Below are positions 6,215 through 55,243 of a stretch of DNA of 64,000 nucleotides, piece after piece. The notes beneath the pieces were generated by a model that had not been told where the DNA came from, did no database searches, and was given only the letters and a program-made list of their open reading frames with translations. The position numbers and the translations under genes were made by a program. Within the stretch, counting starts at the first letter, position 1; every line of letters begins with the position of its first letter. The stretch lies in assembly GCA_963723005.1 (NCBI GenBank), contig CAVRPA010000004.1, positions 13,053 through 77,052 of the forward strand. Direction: 5' to 3'. The DNA comes from an uncultured Acidobacteriota bacterium (GTDB lineage: Bacteria; Acidobacteriota; Vicinamibacteria; Vicinamibacterales; UBA2999).

Positions 6215-6300
6215 CTACGGATGTCGAGAACCTGACCACGGCTCCGACTTACAGACAAAAGCCCCCAATTCAGGGAGCGCCAGTCGGAAGGAGCCGCATC

Positions 6301-6732: not shown

Positions 6733-6736
6733 TGAA

Positions 6737-6773
6737 GGCTTGGGTCTTGAGTCTTAGGTCTTGGGTCTGGCTT
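6737..6773. repeat. 7-nt tandem array (GGTCTTG family), about 5 units
   Basis: ggcttgg gtcttga gtcttag gtcttgg gtctggc, starting immediately after the stop at 6732. Confidence 0.9.
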
Positions 6774-6891
6774 CGTCGGCGGAGTCGGGTGACCGGCTGG
6801 CCGACGCGCCGCTGGCGTGGGCCGGACGGATCATGCGGGCGACGCGGCACGCGCCCACTCGACTCAGTCGGACACCAGCCCCAGCCGCTGG

Positions 6892-8365: not shown

Positions 8366-8460
8366 AGCCTTGGAAGACTAGCGTACCCGCGGACCCGCGG
8401 GGTCTGGCACGATCCCCCGGTTTTTGCAGCAGTTTCTGCAATTCGCGCGGTGGTCGCGAT

Positions 8461-10950: not shown

Positions 10951-10994
10951 CTTGGACTCCTCGCCTGATCGGACGGATCGATCCCCGTCGCCCT

Positions 10995-11588: not shown

Positions 11589-11641
11589 CCGGCCCCAAAT
11601 GCCAATGAGACCGTCCGGCCGCTTTCTGCGCCAGGTCCAAC

Positions 11642-14600
11642 ATGTTGAGATCCGGGCGCACCCTTGTCACGCTGCTGCTCCTTGCGGCCCTGCCCGGGCC
11701 CTGGCAGCCGGCGGCTTTCGCGCAACAGGTCTGCGTGCGGACCCCTGGGTACTGGCAGACGCATCCTGCTGAATGGCGCGCCCCGGCCCTGGTGCTTGGC
11801 CGGGCCAACTACCCGTCCCACGTCTACGTGCAGGCGCAACTGCTGGACCTGCTGCGGCTGCAGGCTAAAGGCGACGCCAGCGTCATCCTGGCCACTCAGC
11901 TGATTGCGGCGAAACTGAACGTTGCGGGCGGCGCCAGTCCGCTTCCGGTGGCGCAGGCCGTGACGCGCGCCGATGCGCTGCTCGGCGCCTTTGTCTCAAC
12001 GCTGCCGTACCGTACCAAAACCAACACGCCCATCGGGGCCGACATGGTGACGACGGCCGACCTGCTTGCCGCGTATAACCGGGGAGAGCTGCCCGGTTCC
12101 TGCGGCGCCGGCAATACCCCCCCCATCGCTCAGGCCGGGCGCGACCAGTCCGTGGCGCTCGGCAGTCTTGTCACGCTCGATGGAAGCGGATCCACCGACG
12201 CCGACGGTCAGCAGCTGACCTTCGCGTGGTCGTTCTCGTCGCGGCCGTCTGGGAGCGCGGCGGCGCTGTCGTCACCAACGGCGGTGATGCCGACCTTTAC
12301 TGCCGATCGACCCGGCACCTATTCGCTGCGGCTCGTCGTCAACGATGGCCAGGCGAGCAGCACGCCCGACGTTGTCGAGATCTCCACGCTCAACTCGAGC
12401 CCGATCGCTGACGCCGGGCCGGATCAGTCGGTTCCCGTCGGCACGTCGGTGCAGGTCAATGGTGTCGCGTCGAGCGATCCGGACGGGGATTCGCTCACCT
12501 ACGCCTGGTCGCTGCTGTCCGGTCCTGCGGGCACGCAGGCAACTCTCACGAATCCCGCCGCCGTGGCGCCTTCATTCGTAGTCGATGCGCCAGGCAACTT
12601 CATCCTCCAGTTGATCGTCGCAGACCCGGGCGGATTGCAGAGCGCGCCAGACGTGGTCACCGTGTCCACCGCGAACTCGCCCCCGGTGGCGCATGCAGGC
12701 GCCGACACAACGGCGGTGCTCGGCGCCGCAGTAACGCTCGACGGCTCCACGTCGACAGACGTCGACGGCAACCCGCTGACCTTCGCCTGGACGTTCACGT
12801 CGCTACCGGACGGCAGCGTCGCGACCTTGACCAATCCATCTTCCGCCACGCCGACCTTCACCATTGACGTGTCCGGTGTCTACGTGGTGCAGCTGATCGT
12901 GAACGACGGCACGGTTGCCAGCGCACCGGACACCGTGGTGGTGGCGACGACGAACTCCCGGCCCGTCGCTCGCGCGGGCCCGGACCGGGACGCCATCGTC
13001 GGCGTCGGTGTCACGCTCGACGGCAGCGGCTCAACCGATGTTGACGGCGCAGCCGTTGACGTATCTCTGGGCGCTGACGGCTCGGCCCGTCGGCAGCACC
13101 GCAGCGTTGTCCGACAACACCGCCGTGATGCCGGCGCTCGTGCCCGATCTTCCGGGCACTTATGTCGCGCAGCTGATCGTGAACGACGGCACGCTCGACA
13201 GCGATGCCGACACCGTCACCATCACCACGGCGGCGCCTTCGAACCGGGCGCCGGTTGCGAATGCCGGGCCTGATGCGACGGTCCCGCTCGCCGCCATCGT
13301 TCAACTCGACGGCGGAGGCTCGAGCGATCCGGATGGCGACGGGCTGTCGTACCGCTGGTCGCTCGTGACCCGGCCCGCGGGCAGCGCCGCGCAGCTCACC
13401 GCGACGGACATCGCGGCGCCGACATTTGTCGCGGATCGCGCCGGCACCTACGTCGCTCAGCTGATCGTCCGGGACGGGCAGGTAGACAGCGCGCCCGACA
13501 CCGTGACCATCTCCACCGGGAACTCGATGCCGGTGGCGCTCGCTGGTGTGGACCAAACGGTGGCGCGGCAATCGACCGTACAGCTCGATGGCGGCGGATC
13601 GAGCGACGCCGACGGCGGCGTCCTGCTCTACTCATGGTCGCTGCTGTCCCGGCCGGCCGGCAGCACGGCCACGCTGTCGAACCTGACGATCGTGAATCCG
13701 ACGTTCGTGGCCGATCTCGACGGTGTCTACGTGGCGCAGCTGACCGTCTCGGACGGCTCGCTGGTGAGTGCGCCCGATACCGTGGCCATTACCGCCGGCC
13801 CCGGAGCGGATCTCAGCGATCACGATGCCGGTGGTTCCCTCCACGCAGTCACCGGGAAGCCAGAGTCGGCTGGTACGTCTGATGTGGAGAACCTCGGCCC
13901 GTTCGCCGCGGAGCAGGTGACCGTTCATGCCCCCGTGCCGGCGGGGTACACGCTGATCGGCTTCGACACGAGCGGCAATGGGATATGGGACCCGGCGACC
14001 GGCATCTGGACGATCGGAACGGTGGCCGCATGCGACCTTGAAGCGACTGGTGATTGAGCGCGACAGTCAACACTCACCGGGCCTTACGACCTGAGCGCGA
14101 GAATCACCAACAGCAGCGCGCCTGATCCCGACCTCGCCAACAACACGGCCAGCGCCATCGTCACCCCGAATCGCAATGCGGACCTCCGCGCGTCGTTCCA
14201 CAACTTCAGCCCCGGAACCCGGAGCCCGGGTGAGGTCATCGGGATGCTGTTCGACGTGTACAACGATGGACCCTCTATCGCGACCGATATCGTGGCATCG
14301 TTCGCCATTCCGGCGGGCTTCACCATCGTCTCGGCCAGCGTCAGCCACGGGACCTACGACGGCGCCACCGGGGTGTGGACGATCGGCGACTCGCCGCGTG
14401 GCCGACCGGCAAGGCTGACCCTCAACCTGCGGGTCAATGCCACCGGTTCGATCGATCTGCGGGGGGCCATCACCGGCAGCAGCCAACCCGATCCCAATCT
14501 GGCCAACAACGTCATCGTTCCGGAGCGAATCAACCGGCCGCCGGTCGCGAATGCGGGCGCCGACCAGGCAGTCAGCACCAACGGCGCCGTCCTGCTCGAT

Positions 14601-32770: not shown

Positions 32771-34506
32771 TTGGTCCCCTGCGCCGCGGAGGGTATCCGC
32801 GTGCAGCAGCCTCCTGCCGTTCCTCTCGAGGACCAGCTCCAGCGCCTCACCGATCGCCTGGCGACGGTCGAATCGCGCCTGACCTCGCTCGAAAGCCGCT
32901 CGCTGGCGGCTCCGCCCCTCGCTCCCAGAAGCGCCGAAGCCGACGCGCCGTTCGCGATTGTCGCGATCGACAACGTCGACGCCCTGGGGCTGACCACCGC
33001 GCTCGGGCGATCGCTCATCATCCTGGGCGGCGCGTTCCTGCTGCGCGCCGTCACCGACGCCGGCACGTGGCCGCCGCTGGCCGGCGTGTCGATCGGGCTG
33101 CTCTACGCGCTGGCATGGCTGGTCACGTCGGACCGCGCGGCGCGCGCGTAGCGATCGCGTCCGGGCCATTTCCGACGGCGCCGCGGCGCTGATCATCGGT
33201 TTCCCGCTGATCGTGGAGGCGACCCTCCGCTTCCGGCTGCTGAGCCCGGAGGTCAGTGCCATGCTCCTCACGCTGTTTGCGGCGGTGTCGCTGGCCGCGG
33301 CGTTCCGGATGCAGGTGCAGGGCCTGGCCTGGCTGGCGGCGGTGGGCGGCATGCTCACGGCGCTGACGTTGATCCTGCGCGTGGGCGAGTGGGCGCCCTA
33401 CGCACTGTTTCTCATCGCGCTCGGCGTCGGCACGCTGTGGCTGGGTTACATCCGCGAATGGCGCGGCCTGCGCTGGCCCGCGGGAATCCTCGCGGTGATG
33501 GGCACGCTCGGCGTCACCTCGCGCGCGCTGGCGGTGCCGCCGGTCGATGCGGCGCTCACCGCGTGGATGGTGCAGGGCACGCTGGTCGTCGGCTACCTGG
33601 CGTCCATCGCCATCCGCACGCTGGTGCGCGGCCGTCAGGTGATCGTCTTCGAAGTGGTGCAGACGCCGCTGGTGCTGATCGTCGGTGTCGGCGGCGCGCT
33701 CGCGGTGAGCCAGAGCGTCGGGTCGGGCGGGTTGCTGCTGGGCGGCACGCTGATCGTGCTGGGGATTGCGACCTACCTCGTCTCGTTCCAGTTCCTGCCG
33801 CGCGAGTCGCGCGGGGCGCTCAACTTCTACTTCTACAGCTCGCTGGCGCTCGTCTTCGTGGTGATTGGCCTCCGCACCGCGCTCTCCGGCGCGCCCCAGG
33901 CCGTGGCGCTCACCGCATTCGCCGCCCTGCTGGCCGTGGCCTGGTCACGCTCTGGCCGCGTGTCGCTGGGAGGCCACGCGGCGCTCGCGCTGGTGGCAGC
34001 CGCGATCTCCGGCGGCCTGCTCCGGCTCGACGAATCGGCCTTCGCGGGCGAACTTCCGAGCGTGCAGCTACTGTGGCCGGCGCTCGCCACGCTGGCCGTC
34101 GCGCTGGTCATCGAGAGTAGCGCCGCTGCCGCGACCCGAAGGGCGCGAGTGGCCTGGGCGGATGTCCCGACGCTGGTGATCGCGGCGCTAGGCCTTGCGG
34201 GCCTCGCCGCGCTGGTGACCATCGGGCTGGGGCGTGCCTTCGGGCTGGACGCCGACCCAGGGCAGCTGGGCACGCTTCGCACCGCGGTGCTGTCGGCGCT
34301 GGCGGTGGGCTGTGCGCTACTGAATCGCCCCGGCCGCTTCTCGGCGGTGGGCAAGCTGGCCTACCCGCTGCTGGCGCTCATCGGGTTGAAGCTCGCAGTG
34401 GTGGATCTCCAGGTACTCCACCCCCGCGATGTTGTTCGTGGCGCTCGCCTGCTACGGAACGGCGCTCGTCCTCGGACCGCGACTGCGACGGGGAACCAGT
34501 TGGTGA
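32771..34506 (+). CDS. polytopic membrane protein (DUF2339-like), two frame breaks
   Basis: N-terminal coiled segment ([23 protein letters not shown]) followed by more than 12 hydrophobic helices. ORFs 32771..33151 and 33213..35396 join near 33150. A shift near 34415 gives the tail ...[29 protein letters not shown]-stop. The family call is tentative. Confidence 0.55.
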
Positions 34507-34525
34507 GTTCAAAGCTCACGAATCG

Positions 34526-34602
34526 CCTTGAACCTCGAACTGTTGAACTGTCGCCGGCCGGTTGCCTCGTGCCGGACACCGGACACCGGGTACCGGCCCG
34601 GC
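34526..34602. repeat. short 7-nt arrays (GAACTNT x3; CCGGACA x3-4)
   Basis: ccttgaacctcgaactgttgaactg and gccggacaccggacaccgggtaccggcccggc, between convergent genes. Confidence 0.8.
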
Positions 34603-34616
34603 TGACCGATTTCCGC

Positions 34617-35327
34617 CTATTTCTTTATCGACGCATCCCCGCTGAACGTCTTCACCCGGAAGCTGGCGCTGCCGCCGCCGTTCAGATCGCCGCGGAAGTT
34701 GCGCTTGCTGCTGGACTGCAGCGTCACCGGCAGGTCGCTGTCGAAGCGGCCGCTGAAGCTGTCGAAGTTGAGGGAGCCGCGCGCGTTGTCGGGCAGGCGC
34801 AGCCGCACGTCGCCGCTGAAGCTGTCGATGTCCAGCCCGTCGCTCTCGTTCCAGGCGCCGGTGCTGAGCCCGATGTTGCCGCTGAACGTCTTCAGCCGAT
34901 GCGCGCCCTGCACGTTCTCCACCTCGATCGGCGCGCTGAACGAGTTCACGTCCAGCCGCATCGCCGACGGCACCTGGATGTCGAAGTCGGTCTCGACGAC
35001 GTTGTCGTTGTCGCGTTCTACTCTCTGGTGGTTGGCCTGAATCTCGATGTCGTTGCCGTTCTGCGACACCTCGAGCGTGATGTCGCGCAGCCGGTCGGCC
35101 CGAGCCCGCCGCACGGCGTGGATCACGACCTGATTGCCGCCGGTGCCGCGGATATTGACGCGACCGGAGAAGGTCCGCAGGCGGAGCGTGCCGCCGGGCT
35201 GGACCGAAAGGGTGCGGTCGAAGGTTTCTTCCTGCTTCGACTGGGCGCCGGCAGGGACGGCCGTAGTGACGAGCGCCGCGATGAACAGGGGAAGGGTGCA
35301 GCGAATCGAGCGGGCAAAGCGGGTCAT
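34617..35327 (-). CDS. DUF4097-like beta-helical protein (putative adhesin), secreted
   Basis: MTRFARSIRCTLPLFIAALVTTAVPAGAQS signal. Repeated ..FSG.V.L.. strands (TFSGRVNIRG, SFSGDVRLRL, TFSGDASIKK). Confidence 0.65.
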   Translation of the reverse strand: MTRFARSIRCTLPLFIAALVTTAVPAGAQSKQEETFDRTLSVQPGGTLRLRTFSGRVNIRGTGGNQVVIHAVRRARADRLRDITLEVSQNGNDIEIQANHQRVERDNDNVVETDFDIQVPSAMRLDVNSFSAPIEVENVQGAHRLKTFSGNIGLSTGAWNESDGLDIDSFSGDVRLRLPDNARGSLNFDSFSGRFDSDLPVTLQSSSKRNFRGDLNGGGSASFRVKTFSGDASIKK

Positions 35328-35451
35328 GGTCACCTCGTGAGCGCGGCCGCGGAATCGGTGCGGCCGTGCGCCTGCGAGGAGATAGACGGAGAATAGGGTC
35401 ACAGGGTTTATTCGCCTGAGCCGGATCCCTTCTTTCAGAGTCCTAATATTC

Positions 35452-40236: not shown

Positions 40237-40408
40237 GACTGTCTCCCCCTGCCCGATCTGGCGTTTCTGCCGCTTGTTAACAAATCGAACAAATTAGCGC
40301 GCTTCTGTCGGATTGGGCCCTTGACCGCTGAATCACGGCCTGTTTTTGCCGCTATTCAGGTCCATTCCGTCAGAAACGACGCTCAATCTGGCGGAATCAA
40401 AAATCTGC

Positions 40409-40456
40409 TTGACGTATCGAATTCATCTCCTTTAGTTTGTCAACTCGTTAAACAAA
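40409..40456 (+). promoter_or_regulatory. candidate sigma-70-like promoter plus operator upstream of the ROK regulator
   Basis: TTGACG (40409-40414), then 17 nt, then TTAGTT. It is followed by the imperfect palindrome TTTGTCAAC-TCG-TTAAACAAA (40436-40456), 9 nt before the ATG at 40465. A related perfect palindrome TTGTTAACAA lies at 40274-40283. Confidence 0.3.
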
Positions 40457-40464
40457 TAGAACCC

Positions 40465-41685
40465 ATGCGCCGCATCAACCCTGCCCGCTTCAAGGTCGCC
40501 ACCCGCGGCACCAGCCGCGAAATCAACAGCCGCATCGTGCTGAACCTGGTGCGCACCCACCAGCCGATCTCGCGCGCCGACCTTGCTCGCGCCATGGCCG
40601 TCAGCCGCGCCGCCGTCTCCCTCATCGTCAACGACCTGCTCGCCCGCAAGCTGGTCTTCGAGGGCGCCGCCGGCCAGACCGTCCGCGGACGCCGCCCCAA
40701 GTTCCTCTACATCAACGCCCGCCGCCGCTCGGTCGTCGCCGTGGACGTCCGCGCCAGCGAAACCTTCCTGATGCTCGCGGACCTGATGGGCAAGCCGGTC
40801 ACCGGCGTCATCTCGTTCCCCACCGTCCGCGATCCGAAGGCCTTCGTCTCCACGCTGGCCGGCCGCATCAAGGCGCTCCTGGCCGAACACCCCGATGCCA
40901 GCGGATGCGAAGGCATCGGCGTCGTCGTGCCCGGCATGGTCGAGCACCTGACGATGCGCGTGCTGCATGCGCCGACGCTGGGCTGGCGCGATGTGGACCT
41001 GCGCGAGGGGCTGGCGGCCGCGACCAGCCTGCGCGTCCAGATCGAGAACTCGGGCCGCGCGTGCGCGCTGGCGCAGATGTGGGCGCTTCGCACCGGCACC
41101 GCGCAGTCGCAAGGCGACCTGGTGTTCGTCACCGTCTCCGACGGCGTCGGCGTCGGTGTGGTGATGAACGGCGAGGTGCTGCGCGGCCGCAACAACGTGG
41201 CCGGCGAGTTCGGGCACGTGCCGCTGTCGCTCGACGGTCCGCGGTGCTCCTGTGGATCGAACGGCTGCTGGGAAGCCTACGTCGCCAACCCCGCCACGCT
41301 GGCGCGCTACTTCGGGCGGCCCATGAACACGGGCCCGCAGGACGTGAAGGATCGCCAGTTCACGGTGGAGGACCTGGTGGCCCGCGCGCGCGGCGGCGAC
41401 GCCAAGGCCATTGCCGCCATCGAGGCCACGGCGCGCTATCTGGGCCTGGGCATGGCCTCGGTGATCAACGCGCTCAACCCCGCCTGCGTCTACGTCGGCG
41501 GCGAGATCACGCTGGCCTGGGACCTCATCGAAGGCGCCGTGCGCGCGGCCCTCACCGAACGCGTGCTCACGCCGGCTGCAGCCGCCACCGAGCTGCGCGT
41601 CGTCGCCGCCACCGAACACCCACGACTGCAAGGCGCCGCGGCGCTGGTGATCGCGCCAGCATTCGCCGCGCCCGTCGTCGCCTGA
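40465..41685 (+). CDS. ROK-family transcriptional regulator
   Basis: N-terminal winged-helix region (INSRIVLNLVRTHQPISRADLARAMAVSRAAVSLIVNDL). ROK sugar-kinase-like fold with zinc motif GHVPLSLDGPRCSCGSNGCWE. The ATG at 40465 was chosen over the upstream low-GC extension of ORF 40321..41685. Confidence 0.85.
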   Translation: MRRINPARFKVATRGTSREINSRIVLNLVRTHQPISRADLARAMAVSRAAVSLIVNDLLARKLVFEGAAGQTVRGRRPKFLYINARRRSVVAVDVRASETFLMLADLMGKPVTGVISFPTVRDPKAFVSTLAGRIKALLAEHPDASGCEGIGVVVPGMVEHLTMRVLHAPTLGWRDVDLREGLAAATSLRVQIENSGRACALAQMWALRTGTAQSQGDLVFVTVSDGVGVGVVMNGEVLRGRNNVAGEFGHVPLSLDGPRCSCGSNGCWEAYVANPATLARYFGRPMNTGPQDVKDRQFTVEDLVARARGGDAKAIAAIEATARYLGLGMASVINALNPACVYVGGEITLAWDLIEGAVRAALTERVLTPAAAATELRVVAATEHPRLQGAAALVIAPAFAAPVVA

Positions 41686-41693
41686 TCGCGCAG

Positions 41694-42539
41694 ATGGAGA
41701 AGACCATGACAGCCGAAACCCTGGCGCCCGCAACCTGCATCGTGCGAGAGACCGCTGCCCGCAAGGGCCGGACGATCGCCGTGGCACCGGGCCAGACCGC
41801 GACCCGTTACCTGCACTACGGCCGGATCATCATCGGCGCCGACGAAGCTCCGGTGCGGTTCGACACCGGGGAGCGGGAGACAGCGCTGGTGTGCCTGGCC
41901 GGGAGCGCCGCGGTGGAGGTGGACGGCACCAGCGTCACCCTCGGGCGCTACGACAGCGTCTACGCGCCGCGCGACTCGTCGATCACCGTCACGCCGGGCG
42001 CCGACGGTGCGGACCTCGCGGAGGTCGCCGCCCCGGTGGCCGGAAAACACCCCGTGCAGGTCGTGCGCTTTGCCGACGTGCGCCAGGACCCGACGCTGCA
42101 CTTCGAGGCCGGCGGGCCGACGGCCAAGCGCGACCTCAACGTCCTGATCGGCAAGAACGTCCAGGCCGGCCGGATCATGGCCGGCGTCACGTTCAGTCAG
42201 CCCGGCAACTGGACGTCGTGGCCGCCGCACGAGCACGCCGCGATGCTCGAAGAGGCGTACCTCTACATCGACATGCCGGCGCCGGCGTTCGGCATTCAGC
42301 TCGTTTACACCAACACCCGCGAGCCCGAGGTGGCCACCATCGTCCGCGAGGGCGACGTGGTGCTGATGCCTCAGGGATATCACCCCAATGTCGCCGCGCC
42401 TGGCGGGGCCATCAACTTCCTCTGGATGATGGCCGCGCATCGCGAGGACGTGGACCGTCAGTACGGCGTCGTGAACGTTCAGCCGGAGTTCGCCAACCTC
42501 GGTTCGGGTCTCGACAAGGCCCGGGTGGAGCAGAAGTGA
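41694..42539 (+). CDS. KduI/IolB-family sugar-acid isomerase (5-deoxy-glucuronate isomerase-like)
   Basis: 281 aa in the frame of ORF 40905..42539, starting at ATG 41694. GNWTSWPPHEHAAMLEEAYLY and MPQGYHP motifs of the IolB/KduI cupin family. Confidence 0.75.
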   Translation: MEKTMTAETLAPATCIVRETAARKGRTIAVAPGQTATRYLHYGRIIIGADEAPVRFDTGERETALVCLAGSAAVEVDGTSVTLGRYDSVYAPRDSSITVTPGADGADLAEVAAPVAGKHPVQVVRFADVRQDPTLHFEAGGPTAKRDLNVLIGKNVQAGRIMAGVTFSQPGNWTSWPPHEHAAMLEEAYLYIDMPAPAFGIQLVYTNTREPEVATIVREGDVVLMPQGYHPNVAAPGGAINFLWMMAAHREDVDRQYGVVNVQPEFANLGSGLDKARVEQK

Positions 42540-42914: not shown

Positions 42915-43688
42915 ATGGCCCCCACCCTCGATTTGTTCCGGCTCGATGGCAAGGTGGCGCTGGTCACGGGTGCGTCCCGTGGACTTGGCGCCGCCATGGC
43001 GCTGGCGCTGGCCGGTGCCGGAGCGGAGCTCGCCCTCCACGCCAGCACGAAGCCCGCGGCGGCCACCGCCGAACTCATCGCGCAGGCCGGCGGCGGTCGC
43101 ACGGAACTCCTCACCGCGGATTTGGCGGAGAAGGACTCTGCCGGACGGCTCGTCGCCGAGACGGTGGAGCGTTTCGGCCGCATCGACATCGTCGTCAACA
43201 ACGCCGGCGTCATCAAGCGCCAGCCGGCGGCCGAGCACAGCGACGCGTTCTGGGACGAAACGATCGCCGTCAACCTGTCGAGCGCGTTTCGCCTCTGTCG
43301 CGCCGCGGGCCGCCAGATGATCGACCGCGGCGACGGCGGCAAGATCATCAACATCGCCTCGCTGCTCTCGTTCCAGGGCGGCATCACCGTACCGGGCTAC
43401 GCCGCCTCGAAAGGCGGCATCATGCAGCTCACCAAGGCCCTCGCCAACGAGTGGGCTCGGCACCGCATCAACGTCAACGCCATTGCGCCGGGATACATGG
43501 CGACGGAGAACACCGCCGCCCTCCGCGCTGATCCCGAGCGCAGCCGCCAGATTGGTGAGCGCATCCCGGCCGGCCGCTGGGGCACGCCCGAGGATCTGGC
43601 CGGCGCCATCGTCTTTCTCGCTTCGCCCGCGTCCGACTACGTGCACGGTCACGTGCTCGTGGTGGACGGCGGCTGGATGGGTCGCTGA
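42915..43688 (+). CDS. kduD: 2-dehydro-3-deoxy-D-gluconate 5-dehydrogenase-like SDR
   Basis: 257 aa. TGASRGLG cofactor motif, NNAG, catalytic YAASKGG. The KduD-like length and context (next to a KduI/IolB-family gene, eda and kdgK) support the call. Confidence 0.75.
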   Translation: MAPTLDLFRLDGKVALVTGASRGLGAAMALALAGAGAELALHASTKPAAATAELIAQAGGGRTELLTADLAEKDSAGRLVAETVERFGRIDIVVNNAGVIKRQPAAEHSDAFWDETIAVNLSSAFRLCRAAGRQMIDRGDGGKIINIASLLSFQGGITVPGYAASKGGIMQLTKALANEWARHRINVNAIAPGYMATENTAALRADPERSRQIGERIPAGRWGTPEDLAGAIVFLASPASDYVHGHVLVVDGGWMGR

Positions 43689-43693
43689 ACGTC

Positions 43694-45086
43694 ATGGCAC
43701 ACACGGCTACCGCCTCACCGTCGATGACCGCCGGCTCTCGCGTCGCACGGCTCCCGCTCGTCGGGTTCTTCACGCGGCTTGTCGGTCCGGCCGCACTCAC
43801 TGCCGCCGGAATGATCGGCGCCGGTGCCGTCGCCACCAGGCTCCTGGCGGGTGCGTGGTTCGGGTTCGACCTCCTCTGGGTGGCACTGGGCGTCGTGCCG
43901 ATGGTGATCTTCACGCTCGACTCGGCGTCGCGCGTCGGCATCCTCTCCGGCGGGCGCGGGATGCTCGAGATGGTAAGGACCGAAATCGGCGCCTGGCTCG
44001 CGTGGGCCATCTTCCTGCCGATGGCGCTGGTGAACATCGTCGTTAACATGAGCCAGATGTCGGCGATGGTCGAAGGTGCCTACGGTGCCTTCGGTCTGCT
44101 GCCTCCGGCGGGCGCTGCCGAAGGCGGGGCGGGGCTCGTGGTTGCGACGCTGGTACTCGACGACGGCGACGGTGGCCGCCGCGGTTCTCGGCGGCTACAA
44201 GCGCGTCGAGAAGATCATGACCGCCCTCCTGCTGGTCATCCTCTTCTGCTTCATCGTGGTGGCCATCAAGGGGCTGCTCGACTGGCAGACGTGGATCGCT
44301 CTCGGCCGAGGGCTGGTGCCGAGCATTCCACCAAACGTGCCAGTGGAGGGGAACCCCGGTGCATCGCGCAGCGCCCTGACGCAGGTCATCGCCATCGCGG
44401 GCCAGGCGTTGCCGCCAGCGGTGATGCTGTCCTACGGGTACCTCGCGACGAACGCCGGACAGACCGCTGCCGACATCCGGCCCGGGTTCTGGCGCACCGT
44501 CACTAACCTCGGCGTCATCTGGGGCCTGTTCTCGGTGGTGGTCATCGTCGCCGGCGCCACTGCGCTGCACGCGGTCTACAACGGCGCTGGCCCGTCGTAC
44601 CTGGGCGTCTCGCACTACTCGCAGATTCAGAGCATCCCCGTGGCGGGTCAGGTGCTCGGCCCGGCGCTGCCCGGCGCCCTCGGGTTCCTGGCGCCGCGGT
44701 TCTTCTCGCTCGGCCTGATCGCGGCCGCGTTCACCACGCTCATCTCCGTCGCCTTGACGATGACCTACTTCTGCCTGGACATCGCGCGGCGCGACTGGCA
44801 CTTCACGGCCGACAACGGGCTGTTCAAGAAGGTGTTCGCCACCTGGATTGCGGTGCCGGCCCTCGTGGCGCCGTTCTGGCAGCTGCCGGCGCTGTTGAAG
44901 GCCATCCTCGCGATGACCGGCAACCTGTTGATGGCGCCGATTGCGATTGGCGTCATCGCCTACTTCGTCAACCAGCGCCGCCTCGGTGAGTTCAAGGCCG
45001 GCGTGGGCCGCAACCTGGTGCTGGCCGTCACTTTCCTCTTCGCGCTCGGCCTGGTGGTCAACGGGCTGAAGGAGATGCTGCAGTGA
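43694..45086 (+). CDS. Nramp-related (LeuT-fold) membrane transporter lacking the canonical DPGN metal site; one frame break near 44155
   Basis: ORFs 43694..44506 and 44076..45086 join. The N-terminus VGPAALTAAGMIGAGAVATRLLAGAWFGFDLLWV is collinear with the Nramp GPG...DPGN...GA.FGY.LLW block, but has MIGAG in place of IDPGN. About 11 TM helices. Confidence 0.6.
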
Positions 45087-45763
45087 TGGCGGGCTCTCGC
45101 ATCGATGTCGTGCGCGCCATCGAGGCGTCTGGCGTGGTGGCGATCATCCGGCTGCACGACAGCCAGGCCGGCCACGACGTCGCCCTCGCGCTGGCAGACG
45201 GCGGCGTCACCGCACTCGAGGTGACGATGACGGTGCCTGGAGCGGTGAGGCTCATCGAGCAGCTTGCCGCGACGCTGCCGTCGAACGTGCTGATCGGCGC
45301 CGGCACGGTGCTCGATCCAGAGACGGCCCGCAGCGTCATCCTGGCCGGTGCGCGCTTCGTGGTGAGCCCGGTGTGCCGTCCCGCGGTGATCGAGATGTGC
45401 CACCGCTACGACGTGGCGGCGATGCCCGGATGCTTCACACCCACCGAGATCCTCGGCGCCTGGGAAGCCGGTGCGGATGTGGTGAAGGTGTTTCCGGCCA
45501 CGGCGCTCGGGCCCGGCTTCTTCAAGGACCTGCGCGGCCCGTTGCCGCAGGTGAAGCTGATGCCGACCGGCGGTGTCACGCGCGAGAACGCGGGCGAGTG
45601 GATTCGGGCCGGTGCGTGCGCCATTGGCGTGGGCACGGCGCTGGTGGACGGCGCGGCCGTGGCGGCCCGGCGCTTTGCCGACATCTCGGCCAACGCGCGT
45701 CACTTCATCGAGGCCGTCGCGATCGCGCGTGCCGGCGCCGGTGCGCGGGAGGCCGTGCGATGA
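45083..45763 (+). CDS. eda: KDPG/KHG aldolase
   Basis: 226 aa. LEVTMTVPGA, GAGTVL and KVFPA..LGP..FK.L.GPLP....MPTGGV (Schiff-base Lys region) are typical of Eda. The start overlaps the upstream stop. Confidence 0.85.
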   Translation: MMAGSRIDVVRAIEASGVVAIIRLHDSQAGHDVALALADGGVTALEVTMTVPGAVRLIEQLAATLPSNVLIGAGTVLDPETARSVILAGARFVVSPVCRPAVIEMCHRYDVAAMPGCFTPTEILGAWEAGADVVKVFPATALGPGFFKDLRGPLPQVKLMPTGGVTRENAGEWIRAGACAIGVGTALVDGAAVAARRFADISANARHFIEAVAIARAGAGAREAVR

Positions 45764-46786
45764 AGGCGGTCTGCTTCGGCGAGATCATGCTGCGCCTCAG
45801 CCCGCCGGGCTTCGAGCGGCTGTTCCAGTCGCCGGTGCTGAGCGCCACCTTCGGCGGCGGCGAAGCGAACGTCGCCGTCAGCCTGTCGCACTTCGGCGTC
45901 GAGAGCCACTACGTCACGCGGGTGCCGGCCAATCCTGTGGGGGATGCGGCGGTCCGTGCACTGCGTGCGGAGGGCGTGCGCGTTGACCACATCGTTCGCG
46001 GCGGCTCGCGGCTCGGCGTCTACTTCGCGGAGACCGGCGCAAGCCAGCGCGCCTCGACGGTGGTCTACGACCGCGCCCACTCGGCCATCAGCGAGCTGAC
46101 CCCGGGCGTGGTGCCGTGGGCGTCGGTGCTGGCCGGCGCCGACTGGTTCCATTGCACCGGGATCACGCCGGCGCTTGGCGCCAATGCCGCTGCCGCCACT
46201 CGCGAAGCGCTGGCGGCCGCTCGACAGGCGGGTGCGCGCGTCAGCGTCGATCTCAACTTCCGCAGCAAGCTGTGGTCCAAGTCGGAGGCGCAGGCCGTGA
46301 TGCGCCCGCTGATGCCGCTCGTGGACGTGGTGATTGCCAACGAAGAAGACCTGCAGGCGGTGCTCGGCATCCAGGTGCCGCATGCCGACGTGACGGCAGC
46401 GTCGCTCGATCTGGACGGTTACCGCACGGCCGCCCAGCAAGTGGTGACGGAGTTCGGCGTCCGCCAGGTGGCGGTCACGCTCCGCGAAAGTCTCTCGGCC
46501 AGCGACAACGCCTGGAGTGCGGTGCTTCTCGATGGCGACACCGGCCAGTTCCATCGCAGCCAGCGCTACGACGTCAGGCTGGTGGATCGCATCGGCGGCG
46601 GCGACAGCTTTGCGGCCGGCCTCATCTTCGGGCTGGCGATGGGCAGGGATCCGGGCACGCGCGCTCGCCTTCGCGGTGGCGGCCAGCGCGCTGAAGCAGA
46701 CGATTCCCGGGGATTTCAATCGTGTTTCGGTAAACGAAGTGGAACGACTCGCCGATGGGGACGCCAGCGGCCGGGTTCAGCGGTAG
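45760..46786 (+). CDS. kdgK: 2-dehydro-3-deoxygluconokinase; one frame break near 46650
   Basis: [17 protein letters not shown]..., GGGEANVA and [17 protein letters not shown] (PfkB signature). After ...GRDPG the true tail ([30 protein letters not shown]...) is in ORF 46517..46786. The break removes the stop and fuses the listed ORF 45373..50301 to the next gene. Confidence 0.85.
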
Positions 46787-46809
46787 AGCGTTCAAGTGGA
46801 GGAACCGTC

Positions 46810-49800
46810 ATGAGCAAGTGGATTCAGGGGATCGCGCTCGTGGGCGCCCTGATGCTGTTGACGCATCCGGCCAGTGCCCAGGACTACCGGGCGCGCGTGC
46901 AGGGCACCGTTGCCGACACCAGCCAGGGCGCGCTGCCTGGCGCCGTGGTGACGTTGACCAACGCGGCCACCGGCGTCGTGGCCACGCGGGTCACCGACAC
47001 CAACGGCCGCTACCTCTTCGACTTCGTCGATCCTGGCACCTATGTGGTGCAGGCCGAACTCGAAGGGTTCAAGGCGGCGCAGCAGCAGAACGTGCGCGTG
47101 CCGCAGCGCGGCGACGTCACCGTCGGCATGGTCCTCGAACTGGGGACGATCGCCGAGATGGTCACCGTGACGGTGGCGCCGTCATCGGTGCAGTTCCACT
47201 CGAGCAGCACCGAGCTGACGATGGAGCGGCAGCTGATCGACCAGACGCCGGTCGCCGGCCGCAACCCCTATAACCTGGCCTCGCTGGACCCGACGATCCT
47301 GACGTCGACCGCGACCAACGAGAACCGTCCATACCACCACGCCTACGCCAACGACTACGACGCCGGCGGCGGCACACGCCGCGCCAACGACGTGCTGCTG
47401 GACGGCGTGCCGCTCGGCGCCAGCTTCAAGACGTCGTACACGCCGTCGATGGACGCCGTCGAGGAAGTCACGGTCTCGAAGAACAGCGTGGACGCCGAGA
47501 ACGGCAACAGCCTCGGCGGCATCATCAGCCTGAACATGAAGTCGGGCACGAACATGCTGCACGGCTCCGGCTACGGCTACTTCCGCGATCCGTCGATGAA
47601 CTCGCGCACCGACCCGACGCTGGTGGTGCCTCCGGGCACCAGTCCCCTGAAGGGAAGCGAGCTGCAGATGTTTGGCGGCACGGTGGGCGGACCGCTCGTG
47701 CGCAACCGCATCTTCTCGTTCACCTCGTTCGAGAACTGGAACGACGCGCGCCCGCTGTCGATCGTGCGGACGGTGCCGACCGAGCTCGAACGGAGCGGCG
47801 ACTTCAGCCAGTCGGTGTTGAACGGCACGGTCCGCAACATCTACAACCCGTTTGGCTCCACCCTCAACGCCGCCGGTGTCGTGGTGCGCAACCCGTTTCC
47901 CGGCAATGTCATCCCGCAGAACATGCTCGACCCGGTCGCGCTGCGCATGCTGCGGGACATGCCGCTGCCCAACGTTGCCGGCAACGTCGACAACCTCCAG
48001 TACAACGTGACCGAAGAAGTGAACTACTGGAACTTCTCGCAGCGCGTGGACGTGAACTTCAACGACAAGTTCAAGATCTTCGGCCGCGTCGGCCTGTTCA
48101 AGGCCGATCTCTATCAGGCCAATCCCGAAGGGTCCACCGGCGGGTTCTTCCCGCTCTCGGGCAGCAACCGCGACGGCATGAGCATGGCCGGCGACGCGGT
48201 GTGGATCCTGTCGGACAAGACCACGCTGAACGTGCGCGGCAGCTACTACAACATGGTGGACGAGTTCTACAATCCCTCGCTGCTGCTCGGCGAGGAGGGC
48301 CTGGCCAACTACTGGCCCAACGAGTGGTACACACCGCTCTACAACAGCGGCTATGCCTACTACCCCGCGCTCGACGTCACCTCGGGCACGGGCACCAACA
48401 CCAACAACCGGCTCGGCCGGCTGGGCCGCGAGTGGTACCAGCATCCCGATGCGTGGACGGCGTCCGCGCGCATGAACCGGTATGAGGGCGAACACAGCAT
48501 GAAGTGGGGCGGCGAGATGCGCGCCTACTTCGGCGAGGCGGCCCGCTTCGAGCCGATCAACCTGGTGTTCAACTCCACGCTCACCGCCAACAGTTCGGAT
48601 GCGCCGCAGGTGGCGACGACCGGCAACCAGTGGGCGTCGTTCATGCTCGGCGCCCTGGACAACCAGACGTCCGCGCGCCTGGTACCGCTGCAGACAACGA
48701 ACCTGTACACCTACTCGACCTATTTCCAGGACGACTGGCAGCTGAACGATCGGCTGACGCTGAACCTCGGCGTGCGCTGGGAGTACGAACCCGGCGTGAC
48801 CGATCCGGAGAACCGTCTGTCGCAGGGCCTCGACCTCACCCAGCCGATTCCGGAGATGCAGGCCGCCCCGCCCAGCATGCCGGGCCAGGCCGCCGCGCTG
48901 ATGGCGAGCAAGGGTTATGGCTGGACCTACAACGGCGCCTGGAAGTTCGTCAACGCCGACGATCGCTCGCTGTGGAAGACCGCGTGGAACAACTTCATGC
49001 CGCGCTTCGGCGTGAACTACCGCCTGGCCGACAATTCGGTGCTCCGCTTTGCCTACGCGCGGTTCCGCATGCCGCTCAGCAACCTCCGCGACACGCTGGG
49101 CGACTTCGTCAACCAGTACACCGGCTTTGCGCAGACCACCAACACGCTGGGCCTCTTCAACGGCCGCCCGCAGCAGGTGCTGAACGATCCCTATACCTCG
49201 ATCAATCCGGTGCAGGAGGGCGTGGGTCAGACCCTCGGCCGCTACACCGGGCTGGGCAACGCGGTCAGCTTCGACCAGTACGAGATCCTGCCGCAGCTGA
49301 ACGACCGCATCAACATCTCCTATCAGCGCCAGATCTGGGGCGGCTTCGTGCTCGACGCGGCGTATTTCTTCAACTACGGCTCGCGCGTGCCCTACAACGT
49401 CAATCTCAACATGCGCGACCCGGCGTTCACCTACGAGCAGGGCGCCGCGCTCAACGTCCAGGTGCCCAACCCGTTCCGCAACTACCTGACGCCCGACGTG
49501 TTCCCGGGCTCGCTCCGTAACCAGACGACCGTCGCGCTGGGCAGCCTGCTGGTGCCCTTCCCGCAGTACGGCGCCATCACCCAGACCAACACCAGCGCCG
49601 GCCGCAACATGCGCACGCACAGCGTGGATCTGCGCGTGCAGCGCCCGTTCACCAAGGGCGTGAGCGTGATGGTGGCCTACGCGTTCCAGCGCGACCGCAT
49701 CGAGAACTTCCTGGGCGACATCCAGGAGTACGAGGTGATGACGAGCGGCGGCAAGAGCGGCTGGGAGTGGCAGCCCGTCAACCCGGTGCTGCCCGAGCAT

Positions 49801-50301
49801 CGCGTGACCAGCGCGTTCACGTGGCAGATACCCGTCGGACGCGAACGGGCCTACCTGGACGAGATGCCCGCATTGCTCGACGCCGTGCTCGGCGGCTGGC
49901 AGTACTCCGCCGCGCTCCGCTTCTATTCCGGGCGGCCCATCCTGTTCAACACGCTGGCGGTGAGCGGCAACCCGAAGCTGGACAACCCGACCCGCGACAA
50001 GTGGTTCGACACGTCCATGTTCTCGGCGCTGCCCGCGTTCACGCCGCGCACCAATCCGGTGTATTACCAGGGGCTCAACGGCCCCGGGTCCCAGTTCGTG
50101 GACATGACCCTGACCAAGTCGTTCATGATGGGCCCGCGCTATCGTCTCGAGGCGCGGCTCGAGACCTACAACACGTTCAACACGATCGTGTGGGATCAGC
50201 CGGAGGTCACGTTCGGCAACCCCAACTTCGGCAAGGTCACCAGGAAGCGTACCGACGGCCAGGGCCGCGAGATCCAGGTCGGCCTGAGGTTCGTGTTCTA
50301 G
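46810..50301 (+). CDS. TonB-dependent receptor with carboxypeptidase-regulatory-like N-domain (intact)
   Basis: GGAGG lies 6 nt before the ATG at 46810. Signal MSKWIQGIALVGALMLLTHPASAQ, CarboxypepD_reg-like GAVVTLTNAATG...NGRYLFDFVDPGTYVVQAELEGF, plug (DVLLDGVPLG), and a ~900-aa barrel ending QVGLRFVF. Confidence 0.9.
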   Translation: MSKWIQGIALVGALMLLTHPASAQDYRARVQGTVADTSQGALPGAVVTLTNAATGVVATRVTDTNGRYLFDFVDPGTYVVQAELEGFKAAQQQNVRVPQRGDVTVGMVLELGTIAEMVTVTVAPSSVQFHSSSTELTMERQLIDQTPVAGRNPYNLASLDPTILTSTATNENRPYHHAYANDYDAGGGTRRANDVLLDGVPLGASFKTSYTPSMDAVEEVTVSKNSVDAENGNSLGGIISLNMKSGTNMLHGSGYGYFRDPSMNSRTDPTLVVPPGTSPLKGSELQMFGGTVGGPLVRNRIFSFTSFENWNDARPLSIVRTVPTELERSGDFSQSVLNGTVRNIYNPFGSTLNAAGVVVRNPFPGNVIPQNMLDPVALRMLRDMPLPNVAGNVDNLQYNVTEEVNYWNFSQRVDVNFNDKFKIFGRVGLFKADLYQANPEGSTGGFFPLSGSNRDGMSMAGDAVWILSDKTTLNVRGSYYNMVDEFYNPSLLLGEEGLANYWPNEWYTPLYNSGYAYYPALDVTSGTGTNTNNRLGRLGREWYQHPDAWTASARMNRYEGEHSMKWGGEMRAYFGEAARFEPINLVFNSTLTANSSDAPQVATTGNQWASFMLGALDNQTSARLVPLQTTNLYTYSTYFQDDWQLNDRLTLNLGVRWEYEPGVTDPENRLSQGLDLTQPIPEMQAAPPSMPGQAAALMASKGYGWTYNGAWKFVNADDRSLWKTAWNNFMPRFGVNYRLADNSVLRFAYARFRMPLSNLRDTLGDFVNQYTGFAQTTNTLGLFNGRPQQVLNDPYTSINPVQEGVGQTLGRYTGLGNAVSFDQYEILPQLNDRINISYQRQIWGGFVLDAAYFFNYGSRVPYNVNLNMRDPAFTYEQGAALNVQVPNPFRNYLTPDVFPGSLRNQTTVALGSLLVPFPQYGAITQTNTSAGRNMRTHSVDLRVQRPFTKGVSVMVAYAFQRDRIENFLGDIQEYEVMTSGGKSGWEWQPVNPVLPEHRVTSAFTWQIPVGRERAYLDEMPALLDAVLGGWQYSAALRFYSGRPILFNTLAVSGNPKLDNPTRDKWFDTSMFSALPAFTPRTNPVYYQGLNGPGSQFVDMTLTKSFMMGPRYRLEARLETYNTFNTIVWDQPEVTFGNPNFGKVTRKRTDGQGREIQVGLRFVF

Positions 50302-53501: not shown

Positions 53502-54261
53502 GTGGCTGCTCTCCGTCGGTGCGTGGCCTCGCGGCGGCACGGCTCCTGGCCGTCGCGCGTGCTGGTGAGCGCCGCGGTGGCGCTGGTGGCCACGGAACCA
53601 GCGGCGATCGCGCCGGTGGCGGTGGCGCGGGTTGCGGGCGAGCAGACAACGGCATCGGCGCCGTCGAGTGTCGTGTGGCGGATGGATCGCCTCGACACGG
53701 TCGGCGGTCATCCCGTGAAGGTGGTCGGCGCCCCTCGCGTGGTCGAAGTGAACGGTGAGCGCGTGGTGGAGTTCGACGGCGCGCACGACGGACTGGTGGT
53801 TGGCGTCAACCCGCTGGCCGGGCTCGCGCGGTTCACCATCGAGGTGGTCTTCGAGCCGGCCATCGACGGACCCGAGGAGCAGCGCTTCCTGCACGTGGAG
53901 GAGTCGGGCACCGGCAACCGCGCGCTGATCGAGCTGAGGATGCTGCCGGGCGCGAAGTGGTGCCTCGACACCTACCTTCGTCACGGCGAAGTCGAGCCTG
54001 ACGCTGATCGATCGCGACCGCACGCACTCCGCCGGGCAATGGCACGTGGCAGCGCTCACCTTCGACGGCAAGACGATGACCCATTACGTGGATCGCGAGC
54101 GCCAGGGCGGCGGCGCGGTGACGTTCCCTCCGATGAAGGACGGCCAGACCTCGATCGGCGTGCGCCAGAACATGGTGTCGTTCTTCAAGGGCCGCATCCG
54201 CCTCGTGCGATTCACGCCGGAGGCCCTGGCTCCCAACGCGTTGCTCGAGCCGCGCGGATGA
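53502..54261 (+). CDS. LamG-like (concanavalin A-type jelly-roll) domain protein; one frame break near 53990
   Basis: ORF 53502..54362 (…FDGAHDGLVVGVNPLAGLARFTIEVVFEP…) continues in ORF 54046..54261 (WHVAALTFDGKTMTHYVD…FKGRIRLVRF), the typical Laminin_G_3 layout. The start codon is uncertain. Confidence 0.55.
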
Positions 54262-54358: not shown

Positions 54359-55243
54359 GTGATGGCCGGCCAGCCGGCGACCCATGAGAGCCTGGCGCCC
54401 CCGCAATCGCGCGTGATTCCGCTGTGGCCCGAGGGCGTGCCGGGCGCGAAGCCAAACGGCGGCGTCGAGCGCCTCGAGGACGGTCGCGTCTACAACGTCC
54501 AGTCGCCCACGCTCACTTATTATCCGCCTGCCGATGGCACCAGTGTCGGCACCGCGGTGATTGTGTGTCCCGGCGGCGGCTATGCCCGGCTGGCCATGAC
54601 CAACGAGGCCGCCGGCGCGGTGCGCGTGCTTCAGCCGCTGGGTGTGGCCACCTTCGTGCTGAAGTACCGGCTCGTCGAGTACGGACACCCGGCGCCGCTG
54701 CAGGACATCCTTCGCGCGGTGCGGATGGTCCGATCGCGCGCCGACGAGTTCGGCGTGAAGCCGGATCGCATCGGCATCTTCGGCGCGTCGGCCGGCGGCC
54801 ACGTCGCGGCCGGCGCCGCCACGATGTTCGATGCGAAGGAAGGGCAGACGGGGGCGGCGATGGACGCCATCAGCGCGCGGCCCGACTTCGTGGCGCTGCT
54901 CTATCCCGTCATCACCATGCGCGAGCCGTTTGCGCATGCGGACTCGCGCCGCAACCTGCTCGGCGCCGCGCCGAGCGAAGCCGTGGCGTCACGCATGTCG
55001 ATGGAGAGCCAGGTGCGCCCCGACATGCCACCGGTGTTCGTCGTGCACACCGCGGAGGACAAGAGCGTGCCGCTCGAGAACAGCGTGCAGTTCGTCGACG
55101 CGCTCCGGCGCGCGCGGGTGCCGGTCGAGGCGCACTTCTACGAGCGCGGCGCGCACGGCTTCGGCATGTCGCCGGACCTGGGCACCACGTCTGGCTGGGT
55201 GGCGCGATTCACGGAATGGATGAAGGCGCATGGCTGGATCTGA
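54359..55243 (+). CDS. alpha/beta-hydrolase esterase (carbohydrate acetylesterase-like)
   Basis: Intact 294 aa. VIVCPGGGY oxyanion region, nucleophile GIFGASAGGH, and HTAEDKSVP / GAHGF acid/His regions. Confidence 0.8.
   Translation: MMAGQPATHESLAPPQSRVIPLWPEGVPGAKPNGGVERLEDGRVYNVQSPTLTYYPPADGTSVGTAVIVCPGGGYARLAMTNEAAGAVRVLQPLGVATFVLKYRLVEYGHPAPLQDILRAVRMVRSRADEFGVKPDRIGIFGASAGGHVAAGAATMFDAKEGQTGAAMDAISARPDFVALLYPVITMREPFAHADSRRNLLGAAPSEAVASRMSMESQVRPDMPPVFVVHTAEDKSVPLENSVQFVDALRRARVPVEAHFYERGAHGFGMSPDLGTTSGWVARFTEWMKAHGWI

Follow-up and report, generated by a model that had tools for sequence, protein, structure and literature searches.

An Nramp-fold carrier without the metal-binding site, encoded in acidobacterial pectin loci, as a candidate importer of pectin-derived uronates

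The subject of this study is a gene at positions 43694 to 45086 of a 64,000-nucleotide stretch of DNA from an uncultured Acidobacteriota bacterium of the order Vicinamibacterales (contig CAVRPA010000004.1, positions 13,053 to 77,052; the whole stretch is called the window below). It encodes a membrane protein, here simply named the carrier, from a deep clade of the Nramp family PF01566 whose members no longer have the metal site and whose genes lie in loci for the use of organic nutrients. In the window, the carrier is part of a locus for pectin degradation. We propose that it is an inner-membrane importer of a pectin-derived uronate, namely unsaturated galacturonate, 5-keto-4-deoxyuronate (DKI) or 2-keto-3-deoxygluconate (KDG), and judging from sequence comparison and gene context we give this reading a probability of roughly 55%. 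Uptake as the direction of transport, a uronate as the substrate and H+ or Na+ as the coupling ion are what we infer from the evidence laid out below.

As assembled, the gene is spread over two overlapping open frames, 43694-44506 and 44076-45086 (+), which combine to one protein of approximately 463 amino acids. Its ATG at 43694 lies 6 bases past the stop codon of kduD, and its TGA at 45084-45086 overlaps the start of eda. Frame A is useful up to '...GLVVATLVL' (44158), and frame B resumes with 'TTATVAAAVLGGYKR...' from 44160. In terms of transmembrane helices (TM), the gene reads as follows:

43694..44158, +: 5' part of the Nramp-like carrier (frame A), TM1-TM4 including G-A-G-A; translation, PF01566 37.2 bits, 92% identity to the intact orthologue P0002
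44159..44159, +: single extra G causing a +1 frame shift, probable assembly error; DNA alignment, 7 relatives without this base
44160..45086, +: 3' part of the Nramp-like carrier (frame B), TM4/5-TM11 including the TM6 motif 'AGQALPPAV'; translation, PF01566 50.1 bits

Both parts score above the cut-off of the Pfam Nramp family (29.8 bits), PF01566 is the sole family they match, and the 3' part is 86-93% identical to intact homologues. The fold was modelled with AlphaFold2 on P0002, a 93%-identical intact orthologue, using a 39-sequence family alignment; residue numbers refer to P0002 throughout. The model (pLDDT 90, pTM 0.90) comprises 11 long helices, with TM1 broken at 41-42 and TM6 at 239-240, the hallmark of the LeuT fold. 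A Foldseek search with this model places EleNRMT (7qia) and D. radiodurans MntH (DraNramp) on top, with a target-normalised TM-score of 0.83; other Nramps and the YcsG model come next, and generic APC/LeuT carriers appear only at E-values near 1e-5. The best sequence match of the carrier in the PDB is again EleNRMT 7qia (E 5e-7).

The original prediction, made from the letters of the window, had described an N-terminal string collinear with the Nramp signature in which the Asp and Asn metal ligands are missing. The string is present in the translation letter for letter, and the ligands are indeed missing, after correction of the frame as well as in every intact orthologue. The residue register was taken from two HMMER alignments, one to 7qia (EleNRMT) and one to 10ky (B. 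fragilis Nramp); a group alignment that took in MntH, NRMT-like and 'IGPGT' proteins gave the same register. The decisive segments compare as follows:

TM1: D-P-G-N in canonical Nramp, D-A-G-G in NRMT, G-A-G-A in the carrier
TM6: V-M-P-H-N in canonical Nramp, I-A-P-W-M in NRMT, L-P-P-A-V in the carrier
TM3 proton path: D and E in canonical Nramp, N118 and Q121 in the carrier

In TM6, A-G-Q-A-L-P-P-A-V of the carrier stands opposite G-A-T-V-M-P-H-N-L, which turns Met into Pro and His into Ala; in TM3, going by the alignment alone, 'N-M-S-Q' with N118 and Q121 stands opposite 'C-D-L-A-E' of MntH. The positions of the Nramp residues D, N, M and H correspond to G42, A45, P240 and A242. The carrier therefore has none of the three side-chain ligands (Asp, Asn and Met), nor the coupling His or either TM3 acid. 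At the fourth ligand position, where Nramps use the TM6 backbone carbonyl of an Ala, it has a Gln (Q237). Since the TM1 motif lies 5' and the TM6 motif 3' of the frame break, and since intact orthologues show the same substitutions, the missing ligands are no by-product of the break. P0002 also stays under the cut-offs of the NCBIfam Nramp models NF037982 (40.9 bits, cut-off 50), TIGR01197 (30.2 bits, cut-off 272.5) and NF001923 (38.9 bits, cut-off 430), as do other members of the clade with 30-37 bits. The carrier has the fold of the Nramp and NRMT proteins but fails every tested defining feature of the metal-transporting families.

The carrier differs from all three established branches of PF01566. 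With the canonical SLC11/Nramp/MntH proteins (DraNramp, ScaDMT, EcoDMT, human NRAMP1/DMT1), the carrier shares the fold and the helix order, a G-P that opens TM1, the block AG..FG(Y/F).LLW and a ..R.G that follows TM2. It is only 14-19% identical to them, however, and differs in D-P-G-N (G-A-G-A), in A..M-P-H-N (Q..P-P-A-V) and in the TM3 pair D and E (N and Q). EleNRMT (7qia) has the same 11-TM LeuT-type fold and likewise represents a non-canonical branch of PF01566 without the Asn and Met ligands. NRMT proteins nevertheless keep the TM1 Asp (D-A-G-G) and T-x-x-A-P-W in TM6, where the carrier has Gly at the Asp position and Q-A-L-P-P-A; identity is approximately 24%, the two form separate clades, and it is the carrier clade that is found in carbohydrate or peptide loci, whereas some NRMT members are associated with M-box riboswitches (PMC4072509). 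The Nramp 'outgroup' of Cellier ('F-I-G-P-G-T ... P-Y-N-L-F-L-H') is uncharacterised and, like the carrier, belongs to PF01566 and has no DPGN Asp. It stands much nearer to MntH, however, with E 1e-41 against B. fragilis Nramp and, for the members tested, 97-103 bits on NF037982. It also retains P-x-N-L-F-L-H in TM6b, and the carrier clade stands apart from it on its own long branch. PF01566 has been divided in the literature into Slc11, 'outgroup' and NRMT, with the second of these regarded as a possible link between metal and non-metal carriers (PMC9606685, PMC4072509).

Homologues were collected with HMMER from 1.84 billion cluster representatives, searched exhaustively. This returned one core cluster and six full-length relatives, which are 34-37% identical in the follow-up alignment. 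Below these six, identity falls to 23-29%, and the matches are 'F-I-G-P-G-T'-type proteins and one NRMT-like protein; the ESM Atlas yielded 'Nramp-like' clusters only. From a one-genome-per-species scan, the best 80 of 158 relatives were retained (79 loci). The genomic contexts reported below cover these genome loci, with the metagenome-only relatives P0128-P0132 standing outside that set. The relatives fall into four groups:

Group A: Vicinamibacterales, 69-85% identity to the query
Group B: Latescibacterota, Myxococcales and unclassified, 53-58% identity
Group C: Hydrogenedentota and a Nitrospiraceae bin, 42-44% identity
Group D: Gammaproteobacteria (Halieaceae, Woeseiaceae, Congregibacter, Parahaliea, Pseudohaliea, Exilibacterium, Elongatibacter), 35-41% identity

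The substituted TM1 motif, in the form G-A-G-[A/S/T/C], is conserved in all of the approximately 85 family open reading frames (ORFs) with a readable TM1, which come from the 79 genome loci and several phyla. In a tree of 44 rows (IQ-TREE, LG+C20, quick search, SH-aLRT as the only support measure), the carrier clade is monophyletic with a support of 100 and a stem of 2.5 substitutions per site, apart from MntH (100) and from the NRMT-like proteins, which form a clade of their own (100). The 'IGPGT' proteins lie outside the carrier clade and constitute no single supported clade, with three changes on the tree and 6 of 11 grouping at 98. Within the carrier clade, A+B (100) is sister to C+D (98). 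As placed by this phylogeny, the clade groups with none of the sampled DPGN, NRMT-like or 'IGPGT'-type proteins. The curated models separate the same sets: 'outgroup' and NRMT-like proteins reach 71-103 bits on NF037982 ('Nramp family divalent metal transporter'), above its cut-off of 50. Five proteins labelled 'outgroup' were scored (75-103 bits), two of which, P0237 and P0239, do not stand with the IGPGT set in the tree. Nramp/SLC11 proteins are classic metal transporters, and in public annotation the family runs under 'manganese transport protein' or 'divalent metal cation transporter'.

Of 151 genomes sampled evenly across the order, 8 encode the carrier and 36 encode KduI, which is present in all 8 of the carrier-positive genomes. 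The carrier was found in neither of the 2 sampled genomes of the same genus and in none of the 12 sampled genomes of the same family; it is thus a patchy accessory gene. A canonical DPGN MntH was not found in the present, 88%-complete genome; relatives from the same family have one. A second match to PF01566 in this genome (G000:C6:73988-74284, 21.8 bits) is sub-threshold and lies in a 502-codon frame with no recognisable TM1 motif.

The synteny of the loci was studied by tblastn of the window proteins against the 79 loci. The gene order ROK regulator, kduI, kdgF-like cupin, kduD, carrier, eda, kdgK, TonB receptor, esterase, pectate lyase is preserved in approximately 20 Vicinamibacterales loci and in two further acidobacterial loci (L038, L043), so that the linkage to sugar-acid genes suggested for the window extends to the orthologues. 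The commonest position of the carrier is that between kduD and eda, and a ROK regulator is located 5' of it in nearly all Vicinamibacterales loci. Two loci, L014 and L016, have no kdu genes, and the carrier still adjoins the ROK gene; in L014 it is also accompanied by a TonB receptor and a pectate lyase. In group B, a cupin and a KduD-like SDR follow directly downstream in 3 of 9 loci, and a GH67N/DUF4838 protein is adjacent in 3 of 9. A Pec_lyase homologue adjoins the carrier in 2 of the 4 loci of group C (Hydrogenedentota/Nitrospiraceae).

Group D loci contain no kdu or kdg genes. What recurs beside the carrier is a TonB receptor, DUF885 in one or two copies, an Amidohydro_1 enzyme, a glyoxalase-fold protein, a DPP-IV-type S9 peptidase and RidA. 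A second subtype consists of a Na+:alanine symporter, a tandem carrier pair, an AraC regulator and a luciferase-like monooxygenase. No metal-homeostasis or metal-regulator gene was recognised among the annotated neighbour families of the clade, a search that did not extend to riboswitches. Clade-wide, the neighbours of the carrier are catabolic genes for organic nutrients, often with an outer-membrane receptor; the group D loci, too, are of this kind rather than metal loci.

Two observations on group D stand apart from the pectin loci. The TonB/DUF885/amidohydrolase set (L049, L058-L061, L063-L065, L068, L070-L073, L079-L082; positions about 2000-14500) looks like an undescribed locus for the utilisation of peptides or amino-acid derivatives, and several of its hosts are cultured strains. 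Cultured bacteria with a carrier of this subclade include Congregibacter variabilis IMCC43200, Parahaliea mediterranea DSM 21924 and Pseudohaliea rubra DSM 19751. The tandem carriers, both G-A-G-S/T, occur downstream of the Na+:alanine symporter in some gammaproteobacterial metagenome-assembled genomes (MAGs; L048 1939-4625, L050 8628-11314, L051-L053).

The locus around the carrier in the window is composed of the following genes:

40321..41685, +: ROK-family regulator with an N-terminal MarR-type HTH, likely the locus regulator; PF00480 173 bits, MarR_2
41745..42539, +: KduI (5-keto-4-deoxyuronate isomerase), start approximate; PF04962 129 bits, syntenic orthologues with 60-79% identity
42536..42907, +: KdgF-like small cupin, GTG start overlapping the kduI stop (GTGA), no signal peptide; Cupin_2, PDB matches
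42915..43688, +: KduD (2-dehydro-3-deoxy-D-gluconate 5-dehydrogenase); TIGR01832 346 bits, cut-off 339
45083..45763, +: Eda (KDPG/KHG aldolase), start overlapping the carrier stop; PF01081 142 bits, TIGR01182 190 bits
45760..46786, +: KdgK (PfkB kinase), extra G at 46654; PF00294, three-frame translation, intact orthologues
46810..50301, +: TonB-dependent-type outer-membrane receptor (CarboxypepD_reg + OMP_b-brl_4); PF25183 442 bits, PF13620
50382..51926, +: type-B carboxylesterase, candidate pectin esterase; PF00135 265 bits
52026..53486, +: PL10-like pectate lyase; PF09492 82 bits, PDB pectate lyases 1r76 and 1gxm
~53640-54260, between pectate lyase and BD-FAE esterase: gene without Pfam match, break near 53990; L024 orthologue matched in two frames
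54359..55243, +: BD-FAE / alpha-beta esterase; PF20434 83 bits
55300..56751, +: GH43 glycoside hydrolase (translated stretch); PF04616 301 bits

With TIGR01832 on one side and TIGR01182 on the other, the placement of the carrier between kduD and eda, as originally described, stands. The best PDB matches of the small cupin include Yersinia KdgF 5fpz/5fpx (E 2e-14) and 5fq0. Two further genes of the window were noted outside this locus. A DPP-IV-type S9 peptidase at 25603-27888 (+) belongs to the enzyme family found beside the gammaproteobacterial carriers; with 16 kb in between, a connection to the pectin locus is improbable. A 727-amino-acid ORF at 33213-35393 (+), between Rieske/cytochrome b genes and a DUF4097 gene, has approximately 14 predicted hydrophobic segments and no Pfam match.

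From these annotations we propose the following route. Pectic fragments would cross the outer membrane via the adjacent TonB-dependent receptor and be trimmed by the esterases and the PL10-like lyase. The carrier, as a putative 11-helix secondary carrier of the LeuT/Nramp fold in the inner membrane, with the SLC11 metal site lost, would import the resulting uronate, most likely 4,5-unsaturated galacturonate or ring-opened DKI, and perhaps instead KDG or a short unsaturated oligomer. Cytoplasmic conversion by KdgF, KduI, KduD, KdgK and Eda would then yield pyruvate and glyceraldehyde-3-phosphate along the lyase route, i.e., from the unsaturated uronate via DKI, 2,5-diketo-3-deoxygluconate (DKII) and KDG to 2-keto-3-deoxy-6-phosphogluconate (KDPG). 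UxaC and GH28 were not found in this 88%-complete genome, with both search controls positive; given, in addition, the cytoplasmic KdgF-like cupin, saturated galacturonate is the least likely of the three substrates named in the original prediction (KDG, DKI, galacturonate). Its broader proposal of a non-metal substrate is supported by the comparative genomics. The lyase route is the evident pathway of the locus; compared with saturated galacturonate, it would favour unsaturated galacturonate or DKI, and perhaps KDG or a short oligomer of the unsaturated kind.

With regard to the substrate, 136 A+B sequences were also compared with 46 D sequences. The residues that never vary in A+B and do not occur in D are concentrated in the substrate-site helices of the LeuT fold:

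R49, TM1b, one turn above the place of the lost Asn; F or L in D
Q230, TM6a; mostly S in D
Q237, TM6a; S, A or T in D
N114, TM3; H in D
N118, TM3; G, A or T in D
S351, TM8; V in D

An Arg together with several amides would suit a polyhydroxy-carboxylate. Across the whole clade, TM8 carries a Thr pair (T347 nearly invariant, T348 invariant), which we take to resemble the Na2-site residues of Na+-coupled LeuT-fold carriers.

What occupies the place of the carrier elsewhere is also informative. In 11 of 20 carrier-less kdu loci, a major facilitator superfamily (MFS) protein of the ACS family (ExuT/DgoT-type; best NCBIfam match TIGR00893, 231-239 bits) is encoded within 10 kb of kduI, often directly after kduD; several carrier-less loci read kduI-(kdgF)-kduD-eda-kdgK with nothing between kduD and eda. 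By tblastn, an ExuT-type MFS was found in none of the 25 carrier-containing loci and not in the window. The best MFS match in the present genome is unlinked and has 29% identity; a close ExuT-like MFS was not found there. ExuT/DgoT ACS-MFS, KdgT and TogT may thus share with the carrier the kdu/kdg position and the presumed task, as functional analogues of unrelated folds. With PF01566 as its only match, the carrier belongs to none of the known uronate/KDG families (ExuT ACS-MFS, KdgT PF03812, TogT GPH, TRAP). A simple non-orthologous displacement of an ExuT-type MFS by the carrier was considered and rejected: the two are mutually exclusive per locus but not per genome.

Several points weigh against uronate import by the carrier. 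Five of the eight carrier-positive genomes also hold an ACS-MFS homologue, and in genome G044 the MFS gene lies beside kduI with the carrier on another contig; the carrier is therefore no simple replacement of ExuT, and the two may take different pectin products. The related loci are not phylogenetically independent, and the carrier copy of the window is frame-shifted as assembled. That R49 and Q237 would line the cavity is deduced from the sequence register only. Finally, a position in a catabolic operon proves no substrate: B. subtilis YcsG, an NRAMP-family gene within the 5-oxoprolinase operon, is a reported Mn2+ importer and was renamed MntG (PMC10448178).

The strongest competitor of uronate import is that the carrier is still a cation transporter with a differently built site, either for hydrated Mg2+, Ca2+ or Mn2+ from or for pectate degradation, or for a metal-uronate complex in which the carboxylate of the substrate serves as a ligand. 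The membership in PF01566 speaks for it, and so does the fact that the closest solved relative, EleNRMT, is a Mg2+ transporter of a branch that tolerates the loss of the Asn and Met ligands. Pectate chelates divalent cations, PL10 lyases depend on Ca2+, and cupin enzymes are metal-dependent. YcsG/MntG, moreover, is a metabolic-operon protein with reported Mn2+ import (PMC10448178). NRMT, however, keeps the TM1 Asp, whereas both unwound segments of the carrier (G-A-G-A, L-P-P-A) are free of acidic and amide side chains, and its TM3 acidic pair is neutralised. The clade remains under all curated Nramp cut-offs, its sister subclade resides in peptide/amidohydrolase loci without an evident link to metals, and within the scope given above (annotated neighbours, riboswitches not searched for) no metal-regulator gene was recognised. 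On balance, we consider a cation substrate unlikely.

The YcsG case itself is contested. The use of 5-oxoproline requires PxpT in C. glutamicum and YcsG in B. subtilis, and the genetics point to uptake of this organic substrate (PMC13274462). Like the carrier, PxpT/YcsG (TCDB 2.A.55) are NRAMP-family proteins encoded within an operon for the catabolism of an organic anion; operon and substrate differ. The sole direct comparison, by Foldseek to the YcsG model 9a52, gave a TM-score of 0.76 at 17% identity, weaker than for NRMT, and pxpABC-type genes were not seen among the annotated conserved neighbour families. The suggestion that a non-metal substrate would be a new specificity for this fold must therefore be narrowed: it is new for uronates, but a non-metal substrate of an NRAMP-family protein has already been proposed and disputed (PMC13274462 versus PMC10448178). 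A literature search revealed no paper on a bacterial Nramp-family protein in connection with kdu genes, pectin or galacturonate.

A further possibility is that the imported compound is not a monomeric keto-deoxy-uronate but a pectin oligomer (unsaturated di- or trigalacturonate, as for TogT) or a non-uronate product, e.g., arabinose-containing fragments released by GH43. This would fit the family-f9-type arrangement in L014, which keeps the carrier with the ROK regulator, the TonB receptor and the pectate lyase and not with kdu genes, as well as the kdu operon of G044, which has its own MFS and thereby suggests two transporters with different substrates. The genome encodes one GH88/105 protein, which may be counted in favour of oligomer import, but the gene is unlinked to the locus. 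Ogl (PF14583) was not found in the genome; the control was likewise without a match, and the search is hence uninformative. The cavity of the 11-TM Nramp-type fold is small, and the commonest position of the carrier, between kduD and eda, speaks for a monomer. We regard import of an oligomer or of a non-uronate product as improbable.

Uronate import presupposes an intact gene. The original prediction had noted one frame break at about 44155; the break is real in the sequence as given, its site is 44159, and it is most likely an assembly artefact, caused by a long-read error, rather than a feature of the gene. The extra G is missing from 7 of 7 related loci in a DNA alignment, including the 96%-identical locus L027, and intact homologues (440-466 amino acids) run uninterrupted across the site as 'LVL-T(A/T)(A/T)T-VAAAVLGGYKR'. 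The break has no slippery motif; programmed frameshifting was set aside on this ground and because none of the relatives has the extra base.

Alternatively, the carrier might be a true pseudogene in this genome, inactivated by the 1-bp insertion in a decaying locus. At least two further +1 breaks in the pectin locus could be taken as support. One is in kdgK, where an extra G in a G run (CCGGGC, 46654) moves the true C-terminus to the +1 frame, up to 46786, and leaves a spurious 1,642-codon ORF (45373-50301) that fuses KdgK to the TonB receptor; the other, near 53990, is another single-base indel, as the L024 orthologue is matched in two frames. Yet the essential gene rpoC of the same genome is spread over three frames as well (G000:C10:98115-102130). 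The assembly is therefore indel-rich, and any 'pseudogene' in this genome calls for read-level confirmation. Apart from the one base, the frame of the carrier is clean, with 90-93% identity to intact orthologues, and a marker completeness of only 88% in an assembly of 22 contigs agrees with a long-read MAG rich in indels. L027 (CAVPRP010000002.1, 465647-487046) is a long-read 'MFD' MAG locus from the same project with 94-96% DNA identity; it lacks the insertion at 44159, and its own breaks are different and more numerous (ROK regulator in 3 frames, carrier in 3, kdgK in 2). Given the seven relatives without the base, the breaks in neighbouring genes and the split rpoC, we read the break as an artefact, and the organism therefore probably makes the full-length carrier; true decay of the gene has a small chance.

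Least probable of all, with a very slight chance, is a role as an exporter, safety valve or transceptor that releases excess KDG or DKI or senses periplasmic uronate for the ROK regulator: direction is unreadable from sequence and some genomes also hold an ExuT-type MFS, but no other inner-membrane uronate carrier is recognisable in or near the locus of this genome, and placement among catabolic genes with translational coupling would be typical of uptake systems.

Beyond the uronate importer of the Vicinamibacterales, we tentatively put forward a wider reading, to which we give slightly less than an even chance. The whole G-A-G-[A/S] clade may be an unrecognised fourth branch of the Nramp/SLC11 superfamily that carries organic solutes and acts as the inner-membrane partner of TonB-receptor loci. 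It would transport uronates in Acidobacteriota and Latescibacterota and an amino-acid- or peptide-derived compound in the gammaproteobacteria, with R49, N118, Q230, Q237 and S351 setting the class of substrate. If so, the clade would be a present-day representative of the link that has been proposed between APC carriers of organic solutes and metal Nramps.

Should the substrates of the clade be sugar acids or other organic nutrients, hundreds of annotations in metagenomic data would be incorrect, and the contested case of PxpT and YcsG would gain an independent parallel. The origin of metal selectivity within the APC/LeuT superfamily, a long-standing question, would become directly testable along a natural series that leads from the carrier clade (no ligands) via the IGPGT outgroup and then NRMT, which keeps the Asp alone, to MntH with all of D, N, M and H. 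For the abundant soil Acidobacteriota, uronate import by the carrier would identify the missing inner-membrane step of their SusD-less pectin loci.

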